Shown here: piece after piece, positions 4,908 through 41,487 of the stretch
Layout of the letters: every line of letters starts with the position of its first letter
Position numbering within the stretch: position 1 is the stretch's first letter
Sequence record: PQ850596.1
Reading direction: 5' to 3' (one strand)
Length of the DNA: 43,870 nt
Source of the DNA: Escherichia phage AnnaReinhart_Bas75
Translations under genes and position numbers: made by a program
The notes under the pieces: generated by a model
Told to the model about the DNA's origin: nothing
The model's input: the letters and a program-made list of their open reading frames with translations, nothing else
The model's database searches: none

Positions 4908-5111
4908 TCAACGGAATCTTGTGTTTAAATCCTGCTCGTGGACGACCCTCAGAACAGTGTCATAATCCCCGTATCTTCCAGGTTCAAATATATCTAATGC
5001 CTTGTAAGCAGACATTGCGTCAGGGAAAACCTGCAGAACCTTTTTAACCCGGCACAAGTCACCGTCGAACTCTTCATCGAACTCTTGAACTACTTCGCAA
5101 ATTGCATACAT
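4908..5111 (-). CDS. hypothetical small acidic protein (67 aa), single-gene minus-strand insert
   Basis: ORF with AGGAGG RBS 8 nt before ATG, own early-type promoter (5139..5167) and shared terminator; opposite orientation to flanking structural genes. Confidence 0.6.
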   Translation of the reverse strand: MYAICEVVQEFDEEFDGDLCRVKKVLQVFPDAMSAYKALDIFEPGRYGDYDTVLRVVHEQDLNTRFR

Positions 5112-5138
5112 TTTTCACCTCCTGTTTAAGTTAACTGA

Positions 5139-5167
5139 ATAGTACCCTATTATATTGGGGTGTGCAA
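5139..5167 (-). promoter_or_regulatory. sigma70-like promoter TTGCAC-N17-TACTAT containing palindrome AATAG-N4-CTATT
   Basis: Read on minus strand: TTGCAC accccaatataataggg TACTAT, then AGGAGG RBS and ATG of 4908..5111. Near-identical to sites at 14262, 37025 and 38441. Confidence 0.6.
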
Positions 5168-5442
5168 ACTATTTATTTACGTATTCCAGTTATTCCACCG
5201 AATTGTAAATGTTGGAATAAACTATTCGAATAGTTGACTTTTCACTAAAAATATGATAAGCTCCACCTGAGCTTGTGAAATATGAACAAGCGACCGCGGC
5301 GCGGGCAGGTAACGGAGCGGGACGTAAGTCCTGAGTGTAGTTACGCTGACGCGTTCGGAAGGGCCATACTCTATTGCTTGTGTAAAAAGTAACAGGTTTA
5401 CTGAGATTACGCCGTTTCTATGTTTAAATGATAAGGACTAGC

Positions 5443-7860: not shown

Positions 7861-7877
7861 TTACTAAGAGGTAAATT

Positions 7878-8177
7878 ATGGCTAAGACCGGAAAAGGCTT
7901 GCCTCGCAGCCTTCAGAATGTCGACTTCGGCGACTTTGACATCCCAGTAACGCCGGCTACTACCGGCGTAGTTGGTGGGGTTAAAAAGTCAGCTACTGTA
8001 GCTGCCCCCGCGGCCATTACCGCTGCCGCCGGGTCGCAGTCCGCTGCGGACCCGACTAAGCCCGAGTTCGATGCCCTTGTAGCCGAGTACAACAAACTTC
8101 GAACTGATGTAACCGCGCTGCGCACTACCGTAGCAAATCTGTTGACTGCGCTTAAAAATGCAGGAACTGTAAGCTAA
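7878..8177 (+). CDS. hypothetical structural protein (99 aa, Ala-rich)
   Basis: AAGAGG RBS before ATG; located between capsid and Ig-like genes. Confidence 0.55.
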   Translation: MAKTGKGLPRSLQNVDFGDFDIPVTPATTGVVGGVKKSATVAAPAAITAAAGSQSAADPTKPEFDALVAEYNKLRTDVTALRTTVANLLTALKNAGTVS

Positions 8178-8189
8178 AGGAGCTTAAAA

Positions 8190-8540
8190 ATGGTTGATGT
8201 AATCAAACGTCGTATTACTGGTGTTTCTGATGATTCTCCTGCCGATGGTCAGGTTGAAATCGATATGGCGAATATCTCGCCCGCATCTTTTTCTACCGCA
8301 CTTGCCGCTACCACTACCAAGTCTACGGGGCAGACGATGACTCTTACCGTAGCCGTAACTGGCGGTCTGGCCCCGTACACATACCAGTGGTACAAAGATA
8401 ACAACGCTATCCCAGGCGCTACCGCCGCCACCTACGAGAAAACTTCGCTCGCTACTACCGATTCCGGTACGTATAAAGTGGTTGTCCACGATGTATATGG
8501 TAATATTATCTCCAGCAGCACCGTAGCAACTGTATCTTAA
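8190..8540 (+). CDS. Ig-like domain protein (possible capsid decoration protein)
   Basis: 116 aa; motif MTLTVAVTGGLAPYTYQWYKDNNAI...GTYKVVVHD matches Ig-like domain signature and parallels 4417..4878. Confidence 0.55.
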   Translation: MVDVIKRRITGVSDDSPADGQVEIDMANISPASFSTALAATTTKSTGQTMTLTVAVTGGLAPYTYQWYKDNNAIPGATAATYEKTSLATTDSGTYKVVVHDVYGNIISSSTVATVS

Positions 8541-19400: not shown

Positions 19401-19762
19401 ATATTAACGACTACACGGGCATACCTTACGACTTTCGCAAGCGCAATTGCTGGCATCACGTGCGCATTGTCCGCGCGGATGCCGGGTTAGAAACCCCAGC
19501 GTTCGACGTTGCAAGCCCAACGGCGATTAACGAAGCGTTTGACGAAGGGCATCGCAACACGAAGGGGCTTACAAAAATTGATAAGCCTGAAAACTTCTGT
19601 GCGGTTCTTATGGGGTATCGCCGTGGCGGTCGTATCGTGTGGCACGCGGGAGTTTACTTCGACGGGATGGTGAGTCATTGCGAGCTTGCGTCCCGTCAGG
19701 TACGGCTTGACAGGCTGGCGGATCTCAGAGACACGTACACGGAGATTGAATTTTGGCGATAA
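19397..19762 (+). CDS. putative tail assembly protein with Cys/His pair (possible NlpC/P60-like, gpK-position)
   Basis: 121 aa; conserved-looking Cys (RNCWHHV) and His (WHAGVY); position equivalent to lambda K. Tentative. Confidence 0.35.
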   Translation: MNINDYTGIPYDFRKRNCWHHVRIVRADAGLETPAFDVASPTAINEAFDEGHRNTKGLTKIDKPENFCAVLMGYRRGGRIVWHAGVYFDGMVSHCELASRQVRLDRLADLRDTYTEIEFWR

Positions 19763-22320
19763 TCCTGCACTACACGCGAAACGCTGATGGCGCTTTCAAC
19801 CGTACAAAACACGTCGGGATGCCGATGGAGTTTGTCGTTAACCGTATCCCGGACGGCGTTCCGGTACGCGTCTATCTTGGCGAGATTGGTGATGATACTG
19901 ATGTTACAGACGACTTCGACGCGCTCAAAGACGAGGACGCCGTGTACCACATTATTGAGGGCGCTGGCGGCGGCATTGGCGACGCCATCGGGAGTGTATT
20001 CAGTTTCATCCTTAAGCCAATCGCCAAATTGTTCGGGCTAAACACAGCGGCTAACGCTAATTATTCCGCTACCAACAATCAGGCTACGTCGCCTAACAAC
20101 AGTCTCACCGACCGCTCAAACAAGCCACGACCTTATGAGCGTTCCTATGATATCTGCGGGACAGTGCAGACCATCCCCAATGACCTGATGCAGACATATA
20201 AGGTGTTTAATGCCGCGGGTGCGCTTATTGAATATGCGTACTATGACGCCGGTCGAGGGTATCTGCATATTGAGGAAGACGGTGTAACTGAGGCAGATAC
20301 CCGAATCAGCGAGATAACTGGCTCGTCGGTGACGGTGTATTCTCCTTACACTTCGCCGAATAACACCAGCACACCACAATTGCATATCGGCGACCCTATA
20401 GACCAGAAATTGTACGTTACATTTAAAAACGCCGATGTCGATGGCGCTGTTCTTCCCGCCCCTAATGATATCGCTATAGACGTGCAGGACTACACTGTCC
20501 AGCGGCAGGGAACAACCGGCGTTGTGGTAGGCGATGACGCTGGTTTCGATGAGTTTTTGGCGGTCGGGGACCTGGCATACTTCGATAACGTATATGCAGA
20601 TACAACCCCAGGGTCTTTGGGTAATGAGGTTAACCTGGACGGGAGGTACACGGTTCTTTCGGTTAGTGAAACCACCCTTATTGTGGACGTCAGTACAAAT
20701 CAATCAGTATGGAACCAGCTAGGGGCGTCTGTGTGGTTTATAGGTGAAGAGGGTAACCATCTTATAGGCCCGGCGGACACTTACGCGGCTTCTCTCTCTG
20801 AATGGGCGTACATCACCCGCGGTACTGTCGACCGTGTTGTAGCCAATGTCGCCGCCAGCAACGGCATGTATAAATACAACGGCGACTATAACCGCGCTTC
20901 AGTGACAGTCGAACTGCAATACCAGATGGTAGATGAATTGAAACAGCCTGTAGGTGACATATTTACCGTACGAGGAACCGTAACAGGCCGGAACACGGAT
21001 TACACAGGGATTACTCTTTACGGAAGTTTACCAACTGCTTCCAGATTCCGCGCCCGTATGCGTCGTGTTTCGGACACCGATAAAGATTTTGAAGGTACTG
21101 TTAGCGACGAGGTTACTTTCACTAATCTGTATGGGCAGTCGCTGGACACAACCCCCCACTACGGCAACCGTACTACCGTACACTGCGCCCGTAAACAAAC
21201 CCCACGTGCAGCCGAGGTGTCCGAACCGGAACTGCGCATGATTGCGACCGAGATGTGCTACAAATACTTAGGTAACGGCGTATTCGATACGGTAATGACA
21301 CCGAACACTCAGGCCGTGCAGTCGCTAATCAGGCTGGCGCGTGACCCTGTGGTGGGTAATCTGGACCTGACAACGGCAAACATGGACAAGTTACTTGCTG
21401 TGCAGGAAGAGATTGAGTCATATTTCGGAAGTGAATTAGCGGGGCAGTTCTGCTACACGTTCGACGACTACGACACCACAATGCAGGACATTGTTCAGAC
21501 TATAGCTGAAGCCGTGTTCTGTACTGCGTACCGTAAAGGCGCGGATATTATGTTGCGCTTCGACCGTCCTGTCGCGGGGCCTGAAATGGTGTTCACCCAC
21601 CGCAGTAAGACGACCGGTACGGAGAAATGGACCCGCACATTCAACGATTCGACTACCTACGATAGCCTTTCGTTCTCGTACATCGACCCGGATACTAACG
21701 TACAGGAAACTATTTATATCCCGGAAGAACTCGGTGCAAACACTGAGGAATACGAATCGAAGGGCGTGCGCAACTACCAGCAGGCGTACTGGCTTGCGTG
21801 GCGTCGATATCAGCGCAATGCGTTAAGTAAAGTTGTCGTAGAGTTCGAAGCTACCGAAGAAGGCGCTCTAGCTACTCCCGGCGGCGTAATCAGCGTGGTT
21901 AAAGGCTCCCGCATCGCGCCGCAGGATGGTTATGTTGTCGCCGTTAATGGGCTTACGCTTACGCTGTCGCAGCCGGTTACGTTTACTCCTGGTGATGACC
22001 ATTCCATCATTCTTAAGAAGCGCGACGGCTCTGTGCAGAGTATTTCTGTTATCAAAGGAAGCCACGACCGCGAAGTGATTATGCTCTCCGCGCCGGAGGA
22101 GGCAATCTACACGGGGAATAGTGCGCTAAAAACTGAGTTTTCATTCGGCAACGAAGCAAGGCATAATGCTCAGAAGATAGTTGTTTCTTCAATCGACCCC
22201 GGCGACGACCGCACGGTCAAGATTACGGGCTACAACTATGATGACGGATTCTATAAATACGACGGCGTCGCGCCATACGGCAGCGGTTTCTCCGACGGAT
22301 TCAGCAATGGTTTTAATTAA
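19753..22320 (+). CDS. tail tip / central fiber protein (gpJ-like host specificity protein)
   Basis: 855-aa ORF after K-like gene; listed ORF opens at TTG 19753, alternative ATG at 19819. Confidence 0.55.
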   Translation: MAIILHYTRNADGAFNRTKHVGMPMEFVVNRIPDGVPVRVYLGEIGDDTDVTDDFDALKDEDAVYHIIEGAGGGIGDAIGSVFSFILKPIAKLFGLNTAANANYSATNNQATSPNNSLTDRSNKPRPYERSYDICGTVQTIPNDLMQTYKVFNAAGALIEYAYYDAGRGYLHIEEDGVTEADTRISEITGSSVTVYSPYTSPNNTSTPQLHIGDPIDQKLYVTFKNADVDGAVLPAPNDIAIDVQDYTVQRQGTTGVVVGDDAGFDEFLAVGDLAYFDNVYADTTPGSLGNEVNLDGRYTVLSVSETTLIVDVSTNQSVWNQLGASVWFIGEEGNHLIGPADTYAASLSEWAYITRGTVDRVVANVAASNGMYKYNGDYNRASVTVELQYQMVDELKQPVGDIFTVRGTVTGRNTDYTGITLYGSLPTASRFRARMRRVSDTDKDFEGTVSDEVTFTNLYGQSLDTTPHYGNRTTVHCARKQTPRAAEVSEPELRMIATEMCYKYLGNGVFDTVMTPNTQAVQSLIRLARDPVVGNLDLTTANMDKLLAVQEEIESYFGSELAGQFCYTFDDYDTTMQDIVQTIAEAVFCTAYRKGADIMLRFDRPVAGPEMVFTHRSKTTGTEKWTRTFNDSTTYDSLSFSYIDPDTNVQETIYIPEELGANTEEYESKGVRNYQQAYWLAWRRYQRNALSKVVVEFEATEEGALATPGGVISVVKGSRIAPQDGYVVAVNGLTLTLSQPVTFTPGDDHSIILKKRDGSVQSISVIKGSHDREVIMLSAPEEAIYTGNSALKTEFSFGNEARHNAQKIVVSSIDPGDDRTVKITGYNYDDGFYKYDGVAPYGSGFSDGFSNGFN

Positions 22321-22332
22321 AGAGGACTCTAT

Positions 22333-24513
22333 ATGTCAAGCGGATGCGGTGACGTTTTAAGCCTGGTGGATTTACAAACCGCCAAGAAACACCAGATTTT
22401 CGAGGCCGAGGTTATCACCGGTAAAGCTGGCGGTGTAGCTACGGGTGCTGATATTGATTACGCAACTAATCAGGTTACGGGACAGACACAGAAGACGTTG
22501 CCAGCCGTGTTGCGTGACGCCGGGTTCAGACCTGCGCCATTCACATTCGAAACAGGTGGGACTTTGGGCGTTAACGACGCTGACCTGGCGGTGTTGTGGC
22601 CAGGGCCATCAGGCGACGGCAACTATTATGCATGGAAAGGTGCCCTGCCAAAAACCATCCCGGCATCCTCAACGCCAGCATCTACGGGCGGAGTAGGCCA
22701 GACCGCATGGGTTGCCGTTAGTGAAGCTGCATTGCGCCGTGATTTGGCCCTAAGCACTGGCGCAGGGTTAGTTGGGACAACATCCGGCAGGACCGTACAG
22801 GCAGAGTTTGACTACCGCAAGACTCAAGCAGCAAAAACAGAGATAAACATACTTGACTACCTTCCAGCTAACGTGATCGCAGCTCTAAACGATGTTAACG
22901 CGTCAAAAGCACTAGGAAGCGTAAGGACATACATTGAGCAGGCTTTAGCGGCAGCAACTAGCGAGAATATCGGTACTGGGGTTACTTTACGTTTCCCGGC
23001 TGGGTTCTTTTGGCTTGATTCTACTCTTAACCTTCCAAAAAGGACGCGTATTGTTGGGGTCTACCCAGAAACATACTTTATGGCTCTCCCTGACTTTACT
23101 GGCACTAACGTAATTGCCGGTTCCACAGGACCCGCTATAGTCGCTATTGATAACACAGGACAAGACCCGTTTTATATTGAAGGTTTCCAGATAAACGCAG
23201 ATGGTTCCCAGCCGAATGTGGTTGGGCTGCACATTGGCGGCTGCCGTAATTCCGTCGTCCGTCGGATATCTGTATCTGGAACCTTCGATGCTGCTGTTGT
23301 TATCCACCCTAAAAACGCAACATCTGGAGACGTGGAGAACCTGGAATTAAGCCACGTATGGACATTAGGCGGTGGGCTTGTGCTCAGGACTAATACAGAT
23401 ATCGACCGTGGAAATTTAACAGGCCTGTCATTCCGGGATTGTATGTTTTTCAGCACAATCGGCAACAACCCTTCATGGGCGACATCTGGCAACCCTAGTA
23501 TCAGGTTCTCCTGCCATGTAGACCGACAGATTTTTGCATGTACATTCGACCGTGTAGGATGGGCGAGTCGCGCAACATACGCCATCTATTCAGAAAGCCT
23601 AGCCGGAAATAGTGCATCTGATGTCAAGGGCTTCCGCGATATTCATTTTACAGATTTCCACGGAGAAGCCCACAATGCCGATGGGTCATTAACAGCGGAC
23701 TGTACTTTTGCCCTTCTTGCGAATATGCGTAACAGTACATTTACTAATATCCAACGCTCCGGCGCTGTGACTCGCGGCGGCATTATCATGGATGGGTGCG
23801 AATACGTAACATTCAACTCAGTATCATTTGCGGACCCTAATATCACAACAGGAACAACGACACCTTGTTGCGTATACCAGAACTCCACCAACAGATTTAA
23901 TAGATTTATTAACTGTGACTTAACAGATGCAACCGGGAGCATGTTTGATTTAGCCGGTTGGACCGTGTCATCCAGTGTAATGTATTATTTTAAGGGTCTT
24001 TTTTGGGACGATAGTGGGACAAGTACCTGGGAGAGTGAACAAATGTCTTCAAAACCATTTGTTCTTTTTAAAAGGTCTGCGCTTAACGCCAATAACGGTT
24101 CTGCTTACCCGCAGGAATCAGGCGTAACTATGGCTACTTCTGGTGATAATCTACAGGTTACCTTTGCACGAGACGCTACCACAAAAACATTCACAATACC
24201 AATCACAACTACAAACGCTGTTTTCAACAACCACGACCGTGTTTATGTCCTATTCCGTCATCAGTTCACTAGCTATGGCACTGGCACAGTTGTAAAAATA
24301 GGGCTTGGAACATCCTATGTGACTATCTCACCTCAGACAGGGAACGATTATTTTGCGGCTATTAGCTTAGCACGTAGCCAGGCTACTAGTTTTAATATAC
24401 AAGTAACCTATAGCGGGGCCTCAGCTGACTGCGGAATATTAATTAGGGATTTAATTATTTCTGACAGGATGCCGTGGGTGCCGAACTTCACCAAAGCATT
24501 ACTTTGCGATTAA
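22333..24513 (+). CDS. tailspike / receptor-binding protein with probable beta-helix polysaccharide depolymerase domain
   Basis: 726 aa; N-terminal segment typical of tail-fibre anchor domains; central/C-terminal region shows repetitive Gly/Asn/Ser/Thr-rich pattern of beta-helix enzymes; last structural gene; GC drops in the 3' part. Confidence 0.55.
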   Translation: MSSGCGDVLSLVDLQTAKKHQIFEAEVITGKAGGVATGADIDYATNQVTGQTQKTLPAVLRDAGFRPAPFTFETGGTLGVNDADLAVLWPGPSGDGNYYAWKGALPKTIPASSTPASTGGVGQTAWVAVSEAALRRDLALSTGAGLVGTTSGRTVQAEFDYRKTQAAKTEINILDYLPANVIAALNDVNASKALGSVRTYIEQALAAATSENIGTGVTLRFPAGFFWLDSTLNLPKRTRIVGVYPETYFMALPDFTGTNVIAGSTGPAIVAIDNTGQDPFYIEGFQINADGSQPNVVGLHIGGCRNSVVRRISVSGTFDAAVVIHPKNATSGDVENLELSHVWTLGGGLVLRTNTDIDRGNLTGLSFRDCMFFSTIGNNPSWATSGNPSIRFSCHVDRQIFACTFDRVGWASRATYAIYSESLAGNSASDVKGFRDIHFTDFHGEAHNADGSLTADCTFALLANMRNSTFTNIQRSGAVTRGGIIMDGCEYVTFNSVSFADPNITTGTTTPCCVYQNSTNRFNRFINCDLTDATGSMFDLAGWTVSSSVMYYFKGLFWDDSGTSTWESEQMSSKPFVLFKRSALNANNGSAYPQESGVTMATSGDNLQVTFARDATTKTFTIPITTTNAVFNNHDRVYVLFRHQFTSYGTGTVVKIGLGTSYVTISPQTGNDYFAAISLARSQATSFNIQVTYSGASADCGILIRDLIISDRMPWVPNFTKALLCD

Positions 24514-24517
24514 AACT

Positions 24518-24540
24518 AAGGCCCCAAACGGGGCCTTTTC
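24518..24540. terminator. bidirectional terminator AAGGCCCC-aaac-GGGGCCTT
   Basis: Between convergent tailspike (+) and minus-strand replication-module genes; same stem as 4882 and 12461. Confidence 0.7.
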
Positions 24541-24541
24541 T

Positions 24542-24679
24542 CTATGCTTCTGATAACTTCTCCAGTACAAACGCCAGTTGCGCATTCGCCGTGTCTCTTT
24601 GCTGCCGTAGTCGCAGAACCTCTTCTTCGAGTTCCTTGATACGTTTTTGCAATGCTGGAATCGGGGCTATGATGTTCAT
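24542..24679 (-). CDS. hypothetical small coiled-coil protein (45 aa; unlisted)
   Basis: ATG at 24679 overlapping stop of upstream gene; Leu/Glu/Arg-rich helical sequence. Confidence 0.3.
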   Translation of the reverse strand: MNIIAPIPALQKRIKELEEEVLRLRQQRDTANAQLAFVLEKLSEA

Positions 24680-27260: not shown

Positions 27261-27579
27261 TTCTCAATTCCTTATATTGTTGGTGTATGTGCTTACTATA
27301 ATAGTCTGCTATTAGGGTGTCAATCTGTTTTATCGAACCAACGACAAAAACATTTGCACCACGTTTACGCATCCGCTCGTGCTCTCGTAACTGGTGCGGG
27401 TCTGGCTTCGTGTTTTCGTCTTTCTTAACCTCGACGAACCAGATGATGCCACCAGGGAGAATTACCAGCAGGTCGGGGGCGCCGGAGCGCCCCTCATAAG
27501 ACAGCTTACGAACGAGGCCACCAATGGCCTCGAATCGCTCTTTTGCGTATTTCTGCACGCGCCCCTCAGGCGTACTCAT
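27226..27579 (-). CDS. VRR-NUC domain nuclease
   Basis: 117 aa; PD-(D/E)xK-type core (GAPDLLVIL ... FVEVKK). Confidence 0.65.
   Translation of the reverse strand: MSTPEGRVQKYAKERFEAIGGLVRKLSYEGRSGAPDLLVILPGGIIWFVEVKKDENTKPDPHQLREHERMRKRGANVFVVGSIKQIDTLIADYYSKHIHQQYKELRNETRIRPQTST
27295..27323 (-). promoter_or_regulatory. sigma70 promoter TTGACA-N17-TATAGT with AATAG-N4-CTATT palindrome in spacer
   Basis: Minus strand reads TTGACA ccctaatagcagactat TATAGT; embedded in 3' coding region of VRR-NUC gene, upstream of 27069..27260. Confidence 0.55.
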
Positions 27580-27660
27580 CTATACACCCCTCACGTTTCG
27601 TATGTTCAGTACCGCAGCGCGGACAGATTCGACAGTCTTCTTCATAAAACCAGTAGATTT

Positions 27661-27791
27661 TCATTCCAGCACCCACAGATAAATTGCGATGAACATGCCC
27701 AATATGGCAACCATCATGCCGTATTGACCCTCGTGACAGTAGACACCTGCGGCAAATCCCGCCAGTACCGCGATAATCAGTTTACTTAGCA
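27661..27791 (-). CDS. small membrane protein (43 aa; unlisted)
   Basis: ATG at 27791 overlapping polymerase stop; hydrophobic sequence LIIAVLAGFAAGV...MMVAILGMFIAIYLWVL. Confidence 0.35.
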
Positions 27792-29962
27792 TAGCGTTTT
27801 AACTCCTGACCTTCCGCTACAAGAGGGAACCCCTCCGCCCATTCTGGTAATTCGCACATCAATCGCTCAAGCTCTGCGACATTGTATTCCGGCGTATCTG
27901 GAGTTTCGCAGATAATCTCATCGTGGACATGAAGTACAATTGGATAACCGTTTGCTTCTACGTTCAGCAGCGCGTTGGCCAGCAAATCACGGCACAACGC
28001 CTGAGTGCAGTTTTCCACCAGTTTACCAGAGTAGGTGTACTGGAAGCCCCACTGCCGGGTTAACTGGTTTTCGCCCTGGTACTTGATGCGCACGTTAGTA
28101 GACACCTTTCCATCTTCGTCTGTCTCTTTCGACACACTTAATCCGACGCCCGGGTATGACATAACGCGACCCGACGGCAACGTCATGCGCAACCACCAGC
28201 CCGCGACTTTGTCGCCGTTGTTGTCTGTCTCTATGTTACGCGAAAACTTAACGCCTCGCGGTCCTGCGGTGAACTCTTTACCTGGATTGCGGATAGCGGC
28301 CATAGCTGCGTCTTCAATATCTCGCCAGAAAGCTACTGTTTCAGGGTGTGACTCTCGCCACATACGCTTGATAGCGTCACAGGTACGCCACACTTTCTTA
28401 TCAAGAATATACGATGGTCGGTCATCCTTCTCCCCGGGTCGCGGCGGTCGCTTGGCTTCCTGAATACGTGCCCATTCATAGCCGCGTGCAGTAGCCGCCC
28501 AGATGTGGTCCGGGAAAGTACCGTCCATTGTTTTTGACATATCAACAAGGTCAAGTCCGAGGTTCTTAGCAAACTGAACGAAAGCGCCAACACCACCAGC
28601 GTAGCCGAGGCCAAGCTCGCAGGCTTTACCAATCTGGCGCAAGTCTTTGCGTTCCTTCTTAATGTAATCCGGCTCCATGCCGAACATCTTACCCGCGGTT
28701 ACACAGTAAATGTCCAGCCCGGCGCGGAACGTATCTAGCGCGGTTTCTTCGCCTGCCAGCCACGCAAGCCCCCGACCTTCAACGTTAGAGTAATCGGCGA
28801 CGACAAACTTTTTTCCGGCTTCCGGGATAATGCAGCTACGCACCGTCGATGCCGTTAGCTTGGCTACGTCGAAACGGCGATGCGCACGACCCTTAAGTAG
28901 CGCTGAAATGCCCTTATCCAGTTCATCATCGTGATAGTACCCGCGCGCCAGGTTCTGTGGTTGGAAGCCTTTACCTGCGAACCGTAACGTACGCTTGGCC
29001 CCACCGTACTGGATGCAACCACGGCGGCGGTCGTCCGACGAGCGACCCAACAGCAGCGGGTTATATTTCGTTGACGCAGTGGACGCGGCCCCGAGGCGCA
29101 TTTCTATAATTGTGCGGGCGTCGTCGGGTAAATCCTCATCCGCCAGCAGGTCGTTAAGCGTTGACTTCTGTGCATTGTGTATGCGGTGCGCGGGCGCAAG
29201 TTCACGCAGAATCGGCAGGAAGTCTTTACCAGTAAGCGAGCCGCCGTATTTACGTTGAGCTTCTTCCTGTAACTGTGCCTTGTGCTTCTCTACGGCTTCA
29301 ATAGCGGCTTCCGCCAGTGCGACGTCAACCTTAAATCCGCGGTCGTTGATTAACTGGTCAAGCTCCAGTACACGGTCTTCGAACTCGGAGTTACCCCAAC
29401 GCGGCAGCTTATGGAAGACTTCACGCATCGCAGTGATGTCGCTCACGGCGTACCTGATGAACATCGCCCACTCGTCAGGGTGAGTTTCTGCGGTGTAGCG
29501 GCGGATTTTGTAGTTCTTCGGCGTCGGTTTAGAGAAACGCTTAATCAGAGCCTTGCCGCGTTTATCTTTCGCGTTGTCTGCAGACACGCCCAGCACTTCG
29601 CACAGCGCATCGAGTGACCCCGGCAGCGCGTGACGAAACGCCCAAATCATCGTATCAATGGCGTTGCTTACGGGAATATCAAAGCCCCAGCAGTGTTTCA
29701 TGATGAGCCTGTCGAACATTGAGCCGTTGTGCCACACCATCTTAATACGACTGTTCGGCTTAACCAGGCGGCGCAGTGCGCGGTGCAAATCACCCGGCAT
29801 GTCGCTTCCGTCGGTGCAATCCCATACCCGCACAGGCTCGTCGTCAAAAGCATATGTGCAGATAAGCACTTCGGTAGTCGGGTGTTCGGCGTAAGCGTAG
29901 GAGCCGACTTTCTTTAAATCGGCTTCGGAGAATGTTTCAAAGTCCAGGTATAAGTAGCTCAT
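27782..29962 (-). CDS. DNA polymerase, family A, with 3'-5' exonuclease domain
   Basis: 726 aa from ATG 29962 (AAGGA RBS); Exo I motif LDFETFS, motif B-like RQIGKACELGLGYAGG, motif C VLHVHDEI. Confidence 0.85.
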   Translation of the reverse strand: MSYLYLDFETFSEADLKKVGSYAYAEHPTTEVLICTYAFDDEPVRVWDCTDGSDMPGDLHRALRRLVKPNSRIKMVWHNGSMFDRLIMKHCWGFDIPVSNAIDTMIWAFRHALPGSLDALCEVLGVSADNAKDKRGKALIKRFSKPTPKNYKIRRYTAETHPDEWAMFIRYAVSDITAMREVFHKLPRWGNSEFEDRVLELDQLINDRGFKVDVALAEAAIEAVEKHKAQLQEEAQRKYGGSLTGKDFLPILRELAPAHRIHNAQKSTLNDLLADEDLPDDARTIIEMRLGAASTASTKYNPLLLGRSSDDRRRGCIQYGGAKRTLRFAGKGFQPQNLARGYYHDDELDKGISALLKGRAHRRFDVAKLTASTVRSCIIPEAGKKFVVADYSNVEGRGLAWLAGEETALDTFRAGLDIYCVTAGKMFGMEPDYIKKERKDLRQIGKACELGLGYAGGVGAFVQFAKNLGLDLVDMSKTMDGTFPDHIWAATARGYEWARIQEAKRPPRPGEKDDRPSYILDKKVWRTCDAIKRMWRESHPETVAFWRDIEDAAMAAIRNPGKEFTAGPRGVKFSRNIETDNNGDKVAGWWLRMTLPSGRVMSYPGVGLSVSKETDEDGKVSTNVRIKYQGENQLTRQWGFQYTYSGKLVENCTQALCRDLLANALLNVEANGYPIVLHVHDEIICETPDTPEYNVAELERLMCELPEWAEGFPLVAEGQELKRYAK

Positions 29963-35942: not shown

Positions 35943-36067
35943 TTCTTTTTCTCCGCACGTTCTAAGGCTTCCTGCATACGGCGCATTGCGCGGTTCATCT
36001 TTACCGGTGCGAAGAAGTCAGCGCCGTGTTTCTGGCGGCGTAGCTGTGGAACTATTAACTTTGTCAT
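35939..36067 (-). CDS. hypothetical small basic protein (42 aa; unlisted)
   Basis: AAGGA RBS; stop overlaps primase ATG (ATGA). Confidence 0.35.
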   Translation of the reverse strand: MTKLIVPQLRRQKHGADFFAPVKMNRAMRRMQEALERAEKKK

Positions 36068-36136
36068 TGTATAATCCTTATGCTTACTTTGATGATTTGT
36101 ACTTTAGCCCCGACGTTCTGGCGTTGGGGTTTCTTT

Positions 36137-36427
36137 TTACCGTTTAGCCAACCCTTCCAGCAAATTTTTATACTCTTCAAAATATTCCTCGACCAAATCA
36201 TCGCCGAAATAGAAGTCGATATACTCGAGATTATCTCTTACGTTAAGCGATGCCGACATGGTGCTTAGTTGGCGTAAGCTAATTAGCTTCATTTCTGTTT
36301 CTACGCAGAAAGGCCGGTAGGTATCAAGATGGCAAGAGATATTGAAGCATAAAGCGAACTCTCCGGCCACGGAGTGAACCATATACACTTCGTTTTCTGC
36401 TTTATTGTGGAAAATTACGCCTTTCAT
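36137..36427 (-). CDS. hypothetical protein (96 aa)
   Basis: Start overlaps stop of upstream HTH gene; acidic C-terminus. Confidence 0.5.
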   Translation of the reverse strand: MKGVIFHNKAENEVYMVHSVAGEFALCFNISCHLDTYRPFCVETEMKLISLRQLSTMSASLNVRDNLEYIDFYFGDDLVEEYFEEYKNLLEGLAKR

Positions 36428-36606
36428 TTCACGTTCTCCTTAATCCATGCTTCGACTTTATTACGGTCAAATGTTCCCGGTAAACGGCGGCCCATAACCT
36501 TAATACAGCAGTCAGGGAATTTGCCGCTGCGCAACCAGTTATTAATCGTCTGACGTGTCACCCCGATACGTTCAGCTACTTCATTCTGCGTCATATAATG
36601 CGACAT
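36424..36606 (-). CDS. AlpA/excisionase-type HTH DNA-binding protein
   Basis: 60 aa from ATG 36606 (CAGGAGATATAAAAATG); motif TQNEVAERIGVTRQTINNWLRSGKFP. ORF-track version extends to 36720 but lacks RBS. Confidence 0.6.
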   Translation of the reverse strand: MSHYMTQNEVAERIGVTRQTINNWLRSGKFPDCCIKVMGRRLPGTFDRNKVEAWIKENVK

Positions 36607-36703
36607 TTTTATATCTCCTGTTTGTTTGGTGAAACTGAGTATAGGATAGCGGGAATGTAAAAGCAACCAATCTCTGTAATATTTAATCTTTACAAAAATG
36701 TTA

Positions 36704-36733
36704 TTGAAAGTTCTTGACACATGTTTGTATAAT
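36704..36733 (+). promoter_or_regulatory. candidate sigma70 promoter TTGAAA-N18-TATAAT
   Basis: Good -35/-10 with 18-bp spacer; no protein-coding gene follows for about 350 bp. Confidence 0.4.
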
Positions 36734-36757
36734 GGTTTTGGGACTTGTATATATTAC

Positions 36758-36795
36758 GGAGTTGACGAACCCTCCCCGAGGGATTCGTCAACTCC
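36758..36795 (+). other. long inverted repeat / RNA hairpin (17 bp stem with one bulge, CCC loop)
   Basis: GGAGTTGACGAA-CCCTC ccc GAGGG-a-TTCGTCAACTCC read directly from sequence. Confidence 0.6.
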
Positions 36796-36932
36796 TCCCA
36801 GACAGCTGAGATGCTTGCCTTGGGGTTTAAGGATAAGTGTATCTAAATCTCATTTAAAGAAGTAACCCGCTGAAATATCTACTGTTTCTTAATGTGCCGT
36901 AGATTCGCAACCGTAAAAATGTAACGATTATT

Positions 36933-36955
36933 GGGCAGGCTTAAGCCTGCCCTTT
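36933..36955 (+). terminator. hairpin GGGCAGGC-ttaa-GCCTGCCC followed by TTTAGTT
   Basis: Perfect 8-bp stem, plus-strand orientation, in a non-coding region. Confidence 0.5.
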
Positions 36956-37024
36956 AGTTACCAAGTAATAAGAATAAAGGCACAACCCTCCCCGAAGAAT
37001 CACAACGGCAACGTAACTATTCTC

Positions 37025-37053
37025 TTGCACACCCCAATATAATAGGATACTAT
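37025..37053 (+). promoter_or_regulatory. sigma70-like promoter TTGCAC-N17-TACTAT with AATAG-N4-CTATT palindrome
   Basis: Near-identical to 5139 and 14262 copies; followed by CGAAACGAGA leader, AGAGGAG RBS and ATG 37088. Confidence 0.6.
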
Positions 37054-37087
37054 TCACTTATCGAAACGAGACAGAGGAGTGGTGGTT

Positions 37088-37279
37088 ATGTTTAAGAAGG
37101 GTCAGTTGATTAAAACGATGTACGGTAGCTTAGGTATTATTGAAAAGAAATCGGCAGTGTACCGAAGTTCTTATGTCGTTAGCTTACTCAGGGAGCACGG
37201 GTTAAGTTCCGCGGCGTATTACCAAGAGTATGAAATGAAACTAATTGGCAACAATTTTAAATTCAAAGGGGTGAAGTGA
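37088..37279 (+). CDS. hypothetical early protein (63 aa)
   Basis: First gene after promoter 37025; RBS AGAGGAG. Confidence 0.5.
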   Translation: MFKKGQLIKTMYGSLGIIEKKSAVYRSSYVVSLLREHGLSSAAYYQEYEMKLIGNNFKFKGVK

Positions 37280-40005: not shown

Positions 40006-40286
40006 TGTCTCTTGCAACTGACATCCTGAAACGAAGCGGCCTTGCGCCGCTGTCACCGAAAGTTAAGACGCGAGCACGTAACGCAACTTACAAGGAACTG
40101 GCAGAACGGCGTAAAGCTATCCGCGCCTGTGGATTCCAGAACGGGAAGGCCGTTAACCTCGGTGAGTTTAAAACACAGGAACGCGCGGCAATCGCTAATC
40201 GGTTATTTAATTACTGGAAATCGCTGGGATACGAGGATATTCCGACGAAACCACAGAGACGACAGTACATCTGGAGACACAAATAA
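40005..40286 (+). CDS. hypothetical protein (93 aa)
   Basis: ATG overlaps previous stop; GAGGGGGTGGAG RBS. Confidence 0.5.
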   Translation: MSLATDILKRSGLAPLSPKVKTRARNATYKELAERRKAIRACGFQNGKAVNLGEFKTQERAAIANRLFNYWKSLGYEDIPTKPQRRQYIWRHK

Positions 40287-40361
40287 ACCGTTATTAAGAT
40301 AATTCCTACCCGTGGTATCCTCCAGTTACTGCATACTTAATACGCACCTGGAGGATTCATC

Positions 40362-40670
40362 TTGGATAAATTTACTGAAACAGTGACTGGGTGGCTTCTG
40401 GCAGCCGCACTAGCTGGTGGGGTAATCGGACTACGACAACATAAGTCCGCTATTTCCGGCCCTATCGACGGCTTCTGCTTTATTGCAACTGGCTTCACTT
40501 GCGCCGTATTTGGCGCACCTCTCGCAGCTCAATGGTTTGGAATCACGGGCGACCGTGAAATCGCAGGCCTGGGCTTCATTATCGCTATTCTCTGGATGCC
40601 TATCTATTCCCGTCTGTCCGGTATCGTCGCCGGAGAATACATCGCACGTCGAGGAGGCCCGGATGAATGA
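40362..40670 (+). CDS. holin (three predicted transmembrane segments)
   Basis: 102 aa; three hydrophobic stretches and charged C-terminus; CTGGAGGA RBS; immediately upstream of endolysin. Confidence 0.6.
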   Translation: MDKFTETVTGWLLAAALAGGVIGLRQHKSAISGPIDGFCFIATGFTCAVFGAPLAAQWFGITGDREIAGLGFIIAILWMPIYSRLSGIVAGEYIARRGGPDE

Positions 40671-40935
40671 GTTATTCTGGTTCTGCGGTATGCTGGCAAT
40701 CGGAGGCACATCGCTGTTTAATGTGTATCATCCCAGCGTTGACGACGGGCTATTTGGCCGGGTGCTCTATATCCTGACTGCTATTGTCTGCGCCGCAGGA
40801 TGTATCCACCTGTTACAGGGCAGCATGTCTCCGACGCTGCCTGAGACATTAATCACATTAGTTGCGCTGCGCCAGATTCGTCAGGCGTGGCTGTCATACG
40901 GAGGACATAAGCGTGTCTCGAAATATTTCAGATAA
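40663..40935 (+). CDS. second lysis-associated membrane protein (two TMDs; holin or antiholin candidate)
   Basis: 90 aa from ATG 40663 (GGAGG RBS); two hydrophobic segments; overlaps both neighbours. Confidence 0.45.
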   Translation: MNELFWFCGMLAIGGTSLFNVYHPSVDDGLFGRVLYILTAIVCAAGCIHLLQGSMSPTLPETLITLVALRQIRQAWLSYGGHKRVSKYFR

Positions 40936-41398
40936 TGGATTGCATTTCACCGCTGCGTTCGAGGGATTCCGCGGAACTGCATACCGCGCTACGCCGAACG
41001 AGAAGTACCTGACTATCGGGTACGGGCACTATGGGCCGGACGTAACCCCGGGTAAGACCATCACACCGGGGCAAGGCCTCCTGTTACTGAATCGTGATAT
41101 GGCTAAGGCCGTAGCTGCGGTTGACGCAGCAGCACACCATTCATTGACACAGGCACAGTTCGATGCAGTGTGCGACCTGGTATACAACGCAGGTGCTGGT
41201 GTGATTGCAGCTGCTACCGGCACAGGAAAGGCGCTGCGTTCTGGTGACATCGCGACACTGCGGGCTAAACTGGCGCTGTTTATCAACCAGAACGGCAAAC
41301 CGTTACTTGGTCTGCGCCGCCGTACTGCCGGGCGTCTTGCACTGTTTGACGGCAAGCCGTGGCAGGAGGCGGAGGCCATTGGGAGGGCTGTTAAATGA
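40913..41398 (+). CDS. endolysin, phage lysozyme (GH24 / T4-lysozyme-like)
   Basis: 161 aa from GTG 40913 (GGAGGA RBS); N-terminal catalytic region FEGFRGTAYRATPNEKYLTIGYGH resembles the E...D...T lysozyme core. Confidence 0.75.
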   Translation: MSRNISDNGLHFTAAFEGFRGTAYRATPNEKYLTIGYGHYGPDVTPGKTITPGQGLLLLNRDMAKAVAAVDAAAHHSLTQAQFDAVCDLVYNAGAGVIAAATGTGKALRSGDIATLRAKLALFINQNGKPLLGLRRRTAGRLALFDGKPWQEAEAIGRAVK

Positions 41399-41487
41399 CA
41401 GAGTTTGACTTCATTTTCCTGGCTATTGGAGCTGGTGCGATAGCTGGCGCGATTTGGGGTGTGATTGACGCTCTCCGTAAAGGTTGA
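41395..41487 (+). CDS. small hydrophobic peptide (30 aa) coupled to endolysin
   Basis: ATG overlaps endolysin stop (ATGA); single Gly/Ala-rich TM-like helix. Confidence 0.35.
   Translation: MTEFDFIFLAIGAGAIAGAIWGVIDALRKG

Follow-up and report, generated by a model that had tools for sequence, protein, structure and literature searches.

Tailspikes of Kagunavirus and of seven other genera have been described as pairing genus-conserved anchors with serogroup-specific receptor-binding domains, and conserved motifs on both sides of this domain have been proposed as recombination hotspots (Pas et al. 2023, PMC10408124). In the extended BASEL collection, to which the Kagunavirus Bas76 (Escherichia phage VerenaMeyer_Bas76) belongs, phages Bas74–76 infect Escherichia coli K-12 only when its O16 O-antigen is restored, and the GtrABS glucosylation system of the cryptic prophage CPS-53 prevents this infection; Bas81 and Bas96 are both O16-dependent phages as well (PMC11990801). 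The O16 backbone, ->2)-beta-D-Galf-(1->6)-alpha-D-Glcp-(1->3)-alpha-L-Rhap-(1->3)-alpha-D-GlcpNAc-(1->, contains no uronic acid (PMC11218652). Publications of 2023 and 2025 already cover the essentials of the system: a pectin-lyase-like module, specific for O16 and sensitive to glucosylation, that Kagunavirus, Skatevirus, and Gamaleyavirus exchange with one another (PMC10408124, PMC11990801). Here, we describe the tailspike gene of Escherichia phage AnnaReinhart_Bas75 in sequence record PQ850596.1, which was analysed as a stretch of 43,870 nucleotides (hereafter, the window).

The gene, which starts with ATG and specifies 726 amino acids (aa), occupies window positions 22333..24513 on the plus strand; the list of open reading frames (ORFs) gives exactly the boundaries proposed in an earlier note on the letters of the window. 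Judged by its sequence, it encodes the tailspike of a Kagunavirus (Guernseyvirinae) coliphage, a siphovirus. Taken as a whole, the data are best explained by a Kagunavirus anchor joined to an O16-specific, probably hydrolytic beta-helix and a tip, exchanged as a cassette, and we hold this account with considerable confidence. As a case of receptor-binding-module swapping it is ordinary and already described. What is added here are junctions at nucleotide resolution (gene nucleotide (nt) 194, nt 373–480, and the stop codon), which are possible splice points for chimeric spikes; a mosaic below the level of the module; a relic in phage Bas82; and a caution that the step in guanine-plus-cytosine (GC) content in such genes mostly reflects protein composition and is an unreliable mark of foreign origin. 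Since tailspike modules set the O-serotypes that can be infected, precise maps of them serve host-range prediction and the engineering of therapeutic and diagnostic phages.

Cassette junctions and spread of the module

A megablast search with the gene returned matches in tiers. About 90 phage records matched only nt 1 to ~190, at 88–92% identity; five (Bas70–73 and DUEC01) matched from nt 1 to 440 or 480, at 94–96%; eight matched over the full length; and two of other genera matched the 3' four fifths. Skatevirus TanjaMuster_Bas81 joins at nt 373 and the Gamaleyavirus podovirus RudolfBernhard_Bas96 at nt 426, and from aa 125 and aa 142, respectively, both carry the same module to the C-terminus, with 82% nt and 89–90% aa identity. 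Their anchors, in contrast, are unrelated (28–45% nt identity over the N-terminal part), the N-terminal region of Bas96 being ~390 aa long and unlike the anchor of this protein, and their virions are those of a siphovirus of another genus and of an N4-like podovirus. In pairwise BLAST comparisons, the match to Bas70 ran collinearly from the tail gene upstream as far as nt 480 and returned precisely at the stop codon (window 24510); that to Golestan, collinear from the same upstream gene, broke at nt 194 and likewise resumed at 24510. Together with KMB35, these two phages are 92–97% collinear with the window in the stretch that leads from the tail protein gene through the first 194–480 nt, as they are beyond the stop codon.

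The segment between nt 373 and nt 480 forms a 108-nt cross-genus junction (window 22705..22812, plus strand; aa 125–160), which comprises the end of the Tail_spike_N domain and the neck and is the putative 5' recombination handle. It is common, at 85–93.5% identity, to Kagunavirus (Bas70–76), Skatevirus (Bas77–81), Nonanavirus (Bas82), and Kayfunavirus (Bas105), and Gamaleyavirus (Bas96) shares it from nt 426 on. The junction is kept whichever module comes after it. At the other end, the stop codon and a bidirectional intrinsic terminator between convergent genes (24511..24545) make up the 3' junction of the cassette. The GC-rich hairpin (stem 24518–24537) was recognised on either strand as a terminator and has a free energy of -16.5 kcal/mol (z=-3.6). 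Its sequence is conserved in Kagunavirus Bas70, Skatevirus Bas81, and Nonanavirus Bas82, and partly in Bas96, and the exact terminator pattern was found in 25 IMG/VR contigs, mostly of 41–45 kb, as expected for Kagunavirus genomes.

The locus thus belongs to the mobile receptor-binding cassettes with flanking recombination motifs (Pas et al. 2023, PMC10408124); the junctions match motifs one, two, and three of that study by position only, not by motif logos. In the mechanism that we propose, the cassette would be limited upstream by the 108-nt junction of five genera and downstream by the stop codon and the conserved terminator, and homologous recombination at these handles would move it among unrelated phages of the same hosts.

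The module is rare: 12 clusters were found in 5.8 billion proteins and 24 representatives in 1.84 billion, and of 50,697 phage records, a tblastn search with aa 161–726 recovered it from just 11. Members of the wider family are joined to four other types of anchor (Tail_spike_N, T7 tail fibre N, P22 head-binding, and BppU_N). The modules of Bas81, a siphovirus, and Bas96, an N4-like podovirus, are 99% identical in nt, with 0.04 synonymous substitutions per synonymous site (dS) and 100% identity over aa 368–545, which implies a very recent transfer between morphotypes; the samples that yielded the two phages were of one kind. In Bas82 (PQ850612.1, 30586–30666, minus strand), an untranslated, out-of-frame relic, CGILIRDLVISDRMPWAPNFTKALLCD*, lies 9 nt beyond the stop codon of the tail fibre gene that now occupies the site, with the same conserved terminator behind it. 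The relic corresponds to the last 27 codons of the module, with 25 of 27 residues identical to the C-terminus of this protein, and it looks like the scar of an earlier module replacement. The module is under purifying selection, with a ratio of nonsynonymous to synonymous substitution rates (dN/dS) of 0.03–0.11. The suggestion of the earlier note that a host-range module was swapped in horizontally is borne out by the recombination junctions and by the occurrence of the same module in three genera, and it agrees with the phenotypes of Bas74–76 (PMC11990801).

The start and stop of the gene are identical to those of Bas76_0032, annotated 'tail spike protein' (XPK43695.1; PQ850632.1), with 99.8% nt identity: five nt and one aa differ, the latter being Gly at position 377 here (G377) and Asp in Bas76 (D377). 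The equivalents in the Kagunaviruses Bas74, NTEC3, SCS92, and 590B are likewise the same gene, at the same locus, with the same length and boundaries. The position of the gene, together with its genus-conserved N-terminus, identifies it as a Kagunavirus tailspike gene. Directly upstream lies the gene of a J-like central tail protein (19753–22320), and 3' of the tailspike gene the terminator is followed by convergent replication genes. It is the sole receptor-binding protein gene at this locus.

Anchor, beta-helix body, and tip

The anchor extends over aa 1–160 and consists of two segments ahead of the cross-genus junction. The first (aa 1–65; 22333..22526, plus strand) is the genus-wide Kagunavirus/Guernseyvirinae virion-attachment segment; the second (aa 66–124; 22527..22704, plus strand) occurs only in a Kagunavirus sub-lineage and holds the first half of the Tail_spike_N-type domain. 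PHROG tail-spike families (phrog_29731, 'tail spike protein') matched aa 1–136 with E=2e-70, and aa 1–135 are 74–79% identical to the N-termini of Salmonella Jerseyvirus tailspikes. Pfam Tail_spike_N (PF18668, TSP1/Gp66-type) matched aa 97–130 (window 22621–22722) with 51.3 bits (cut-off 25, E=1.3e-13), and these residues align to the C-terminal half of the model; the protein is accordingly a Tail_spike_N tailspike. In a phmmer search of PDB, solved tailspikes matched within aa 6–187 only, the matches to CBA120 TSP1/3/4 and other spikes being confined to aa 53–187. A tblastn search with aa 1–160 reached 1,659 phage records from Salmonella, Escherichia, Klebsiella, and other hosts. These four lines of evidence uphold the conserved N-terminal anchor of the earlier note. 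We propose that the N-terminal 160 residues combine a genus-specific anchor, the Tail_spike_N-type domain, and a neck, and that they fix the spike, presumably trimeric, at the tail tip beside the J-like central tail protein.

Other Kagunavirus and Guernseyvirinae phages, namely Bas70–73, Golestan, K1-specific endosialidase phages, and Salmonella Jerseyviruses, share the locus, the first 65–160 residues, and the downstream terminator. Their receptor-binding parts, however, are unrelated or barely related to this one: the tblastn search with aa 161–726 missed them, the BLASTP match to Bas70 ended at aa 264, and the tailspikes of some of these relatives are annotated as beta-propeller endosialidases.

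Because no family could be assigned directly to the C-terminal part, its fold was reached via a family alignment and structure prediction. The alignment held 31 sequences, comprising the 12 proteins of the first protein search and most of the 24 representative clusters; it is shallow because the exhaustive search gave just those 24. The AlphaFold model built from it has a predicted local distance difference test score (pLDDT) of 81.8 and a predicted template modelling score of 0.83 for the monomer. The top Foldseek matches of the model were CBA120 TSP4, K2-2 TSP, Depo32, and Sf6; AlgE4, RbmB, K5 lyase, and PL6 alginate lyases, all of them lyases or epimerases, were also among the best fold matches. 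The protein itself had no sequence-level match to the beta-helix Pfam families PF12708 and PF13229, which were found in 9 and 3 of the 31 homologues, respectively, and the family profile reached GH55 glucanases, phi29 gp12, the Sf6 tailspike, and LKA1 gp49. The right-handed parallel beta-helix of the pectin-lyase-like superfamily (IPR011050 / SSF51126), which the earlier note had expected, is thus the fold predicted here. A helical cap and the beta-helix make up aa 161 to ~595 (22813..24117, plus strand), the O-antigen-binding and presumably catalytic body. A beta-sandwich tip of the carbohydrate-binding-module type follows at aa ~598–726 (24124..24510, plus strand) and is the part of lowest GC and greatest divergence.

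Conservation in the family alignment peaks at aa 292–351. Within the family, SGDVEN is the best-conserved motif and contains the candidate catalytic or substrate-binding residues D333-V-E335-N336 (codons at 23329..23340, plus strand): D333 and N336 do not vary among the 31 sequences, 28 of which also have E335, and the pLDDT of the model is 92–98 at the motif. Conserved residues also lie ~28 residues, or one helix turn, to either side of it (R305/N306/S307 and G360/N361/T363), and E445 and D559 each occur in 29 of the 31 sequences. A 99% identical homologue of 726 aa from an assembly labelled E. coli, the cluster representative P0001, has Ala at position 333, which may be a natural inactive variant or an error.

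Over aa 161–726, the protein is 99.8% identical to that of Bas76 and 97.3% identical to that of Bas74, which places it by sequence in the O16-specific clade (Bas74–76) of the BASEL phylogeny. We propose that residues 161–595 bind the non-glucosylated form of the E. coli O16 O-antigen and that the beta-helix most probably cleaves it hydrolytically via the conserved acidic residues D333, E335, and E445. Cleavage would let the virion work its way through the lipopolysaccharide layer to the outer membrane. Residues 598–726 would form a beta-sandwich tip that resembles carbohydrate-binding modules, with a role presumed from that likeness. Depolymerase activity, hydrolysis, and the identities of the catalytic residues are all predictions.

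Several observations weigh against this account. The O16 phenotype is carried over from the near-identical Bas76 protein, because the window differs from the Bas76 record (in blocks of 88–98.6% identity and at residue 377), and the present protein bears G377. Past the anchor, Pfam gave no match at E<=1 and no catalytic family directly. Identity to any solved beta-helix enzyme is only 8–15%, and for this reason catalytic residues cannot be transferred from one to the other. The predicted model is monomeric, so that a trimer and any active site between subunits are presumed; trimers have been predicted for BASEL spikes (PMC11990801, Fig 12 legend), and trimer prediction failed for O16-targeting receptor-binding proteins (PMC10408124). 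Lastly, the GC step that prompted the finding is mostly an effect of amino acid composition.

Known relatives of the fold differ from this spike in several respects. The O-antigen-cleaving beta-helix tailspikes of the podoviruses Sf6, HK620, and P22, as well as CBA120 TSP1–4, are only 8–13% identical to it in the helix, are attached through other anchors (P22-type head-binding domain), and have other glycan specificities, and their catalytic residues are not transferable. The pectin-lyase-like AlgE4 mannuronan epimerase, GH28 and GH55 hydrolases, and RbmB lyase are cellular enzymes without virion anchors that act on other substrates, partly by other chemistry.

If the spike did no more than bind the O16 O-antigen, the beta-helix would be an adhesin without catalysis. 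We consider this unlikely. A ladder of polar and acidic residues (R305, D333/E335/N336, N361/T363, E445, and D559), typical of an active-site groove, is kept in homologues of 20–40% identity, and the other strong matches to the fold are, with few exceptions, tailspikes of demonstrated activity or enzymes that cleave glycans. Moreover, where the only receptor-binding protein of a phage is directed at a long O-antigen, the phage has to get through that layer.

A polysaccharide lyase or an O-acetyl esterase in place of a glycoside hydrolase is more improbable still, even though lyases and epimerases are among the best fold matches listed above. The O16 antigen of K-12 does carry an O-acetyl group on rhamnose. 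Esterase tailspikes are found in Gamaleyaviruses such as G7C (cited in PMC11990801). Against a lyase, the O16 backbone lacks uronic acid (PMC11218652) and hence offers no substrate for beta-elimination; beta-elimination is therefore excluded, a hydrolytic endoglycosidase is likelier than a lyase of the pectate-lyase type, and the lyase mechanism was set aside. As to an esterase, no SGNH or alpha/beta-hydrolase domain was detected by Pfam or fold searches of this protein. Known esterase spikes use domains of these two types. A beta-helix hydrolase specific for O16 remains the reading that we prefer.

Recombination within the module

Divergence from Bas81 and Bas96 is uneven along the module. 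The dS is 0.23 over aa 161–367 and ~1.9 over aa 368–545, and it is saturated over aa 546–726; in the two unsaturated segments, dN/dS is 0.03–0.06. Third-position mismatches to these two phages place a breakpoint at nt ~1152, with a chi-square of 86 as against at most 13.5 in permutations, and the comparison with KMB35 breaks at ~1632. A sharper discontinuity separates the gene from those of Bas74, NTEC3, and 590B. These are 100% identical to it from nt ~361 to 1800 and 76–88% identical thereafter, the third-position mismatch rising from 0.00–0.01 to 0.43–0.44 (maximum chi-square 203–217, as against at most 25 in 200 permutations).

This jump delimits an independently exchanged tip allele at aa ~630–726 (24219..24510, plus strand; gene nt ~1887–2178). 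Unlike in Bas74, NTEC3, and 590B, the last ~295 nt of the gene are another synonymous allele, and the encoded tip differs from theirs at only ~4–5 of the last 97 residues. The tips are anciently diverged alleles, strongly constrained, that were recombined onto an otherwise identical helix. Recombination also acts inside the cassette. The stretch that the earlier note singled out as lowest in GC coincides with the most divergent segment of the module.

Two small differences set the gene apart from close relatives. Codon 377 (window 23461–23463) encodes Gly here and Asp in Bas76, Bas74, NTEC3, 590B, KMB35, XY2, Bas81, and Bas96; the residue lies within a three-residue loop insertion (375–377) that is present only in close relatives. 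In addition, four clustered synonymous differences at gene nt 336–348 (window 22668–22680), which distinguish the gene from Bas76_0032, are absent from every other Kagunavirus compared and resemble a micro-conversion patch.

One could go further and regard the module as made up of three or four segments at least, each recombining on its own (the cap with the first helix turns, the distal helix, and the carbohydrate-binding-module-like tip from ~aa 630), in which the tip allele or helix loops, such as 375–377 with G377 or D377, would tune the use of O16 variants (glucosylated vs non-glucosylated) or a second contact with the outer membrane. We regard this extension as speculative and rather unlikely to hold. 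If true, it would mean that host range is adjusted through sub-module shuffling too, and not by whole-cassette swaps alone.

Base composition and genome context

The mean GC is 0.507 in the window and 0.479 in the tailspike gene. Windowed GC and codon usage showed that composition is not uniform across the gene. Maximum-likelihood change points fell at gene nt ~470–474 (window ~22803) and ~1449 (window ~23781), delimiting segments with GC of 0.561, 0.482, and 0.422. The GC drop described in the earlier note is therefore real, although its start, given as about 22750, was placed ~50 nt too early, and at nt ~474 the change in composition falls together with a real recombination junction, since the collinearity of Bas70 ends at nt 480. 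The lowest GC had been assigned to 24000–24500; the 300-nt minima lie somewhat upstream, at 23800–24100 (0.40), and values of 0.42–0.44 continue onward to 24500. The 300-nt window at 22501 has the maximum GC of the entire 43.9-kb window (0.597), and that at 23801 is within the 13 lowest of ~870. A single step gave a log-likelihood ratio of 8.06, a value reached by none of 500 within-gene codon shuffles (shuffle maximum 7.34).

The step resides mainly in codon positions 1 and 2, GC at the first position (GC1) falling from 0.59 to 0.47. At third positions (GC3) alone, a step inside the gene was not significant, being reached by 162 of 1000 permutations; as an argument for foreign origin the within-gene GC3 step was dropped, and the contrast in GC3 between gene and genome was kept. 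Amino acid composition combined with the backbone codon usage of the other long ORFs predicts GC of 0.587, 0.531, and 0.498 for the three segments, where 0.558, 0.483, and 0.424 were observed, and about two thirds of the fall are thus a protein-composition effect. The synonymous signal is nonetheless real at the whole-gene level: with 0.442, the gene has the lowest GC3 among 29 ORFs of at least 120 aa (mean of the others 0.565, standard deviation 0.043), and GC3 is 0.419 in the receptor-binding module and 0.376 in the last 181 codons (aa 546–726). The earlier note had called the region Gly/Asn/Ser/Thr-rich and repetitive. Asn does rise, from 1.9% to ~7%, and Ser from 6% to 8–10%, but Gly falls from 13.8% to 7–10% and Thr is unchanged. 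Repeats were absent at the sequence level, since self-BLASTP returned the identity match only and TRF a trivial 29-nt match.

Alternative modules in the same slot of sister phages are equally low in GC (0.462 in Bas70 and 0.473 in Golestan). Because the GC step is mostly an amino acid composition effect and the modules of sister phages are equally GC-low, it is poor as the sole evidence of foreign origin. That the step reflects only the composition of a beta-helix and local selection, the gene being a long resident without horizontal signal, is the least probable of the alternatives: the predicted fall from 0.587 to 0.498, the insignificant GC3 step within the gene, and the similar GC of the unrelated modules of Bas70 and Golestan favour it, but the sharp junctions and the 82% nt identity to Skatevirus and Gamaleyavirus genes demonstrate exchange independently of GC, sister Kagunaviruses with flanks ~95% identical have unrelated modules, the GC3 of the gene is the lowest of the 29 ORFs, and the GC of the module (~0.45) stays constant across three backbones of 0.51, 0.46, and 0.435. 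As a complete account, long residence is refuted by the junction mapping, and it stands only for most of the GC amplitude.

The lowest-GC stretches of the window lie outside the tailspike gene and are below it in GC, at 36000–37100 and 4951–5250 (0.37–0.41). They hold clusters of very small hypothetical genes, together with an excisionase-like regulator and divergent intergenic DNA, as well as a small minus-strand gene that follows a Hoc-like gene. These other low-GC islands of the window, small-gene clusters and intergenic DNA, bear no relation to the tailspike finding.

No terminal redundancy was found when the window was checked for it. Compared with the Bas76 record PQ850632.1, the window consists of collinear blocks of 88–98.6% identity with indels, regions that differ being, for example, 7872–8258, 27568–28745, and 40006–41400; the nearest relatives of its replication module are KMB35 and Bas70. 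By these comparisons, the window is a distinct mosaic member of the Bas76 clade and not the Bas76 record itself, and its backbone is mosaic as well. It also carries ~319 nt of extra sequence, relative to PQ850632.1, near the Hoc-like decoration gene.

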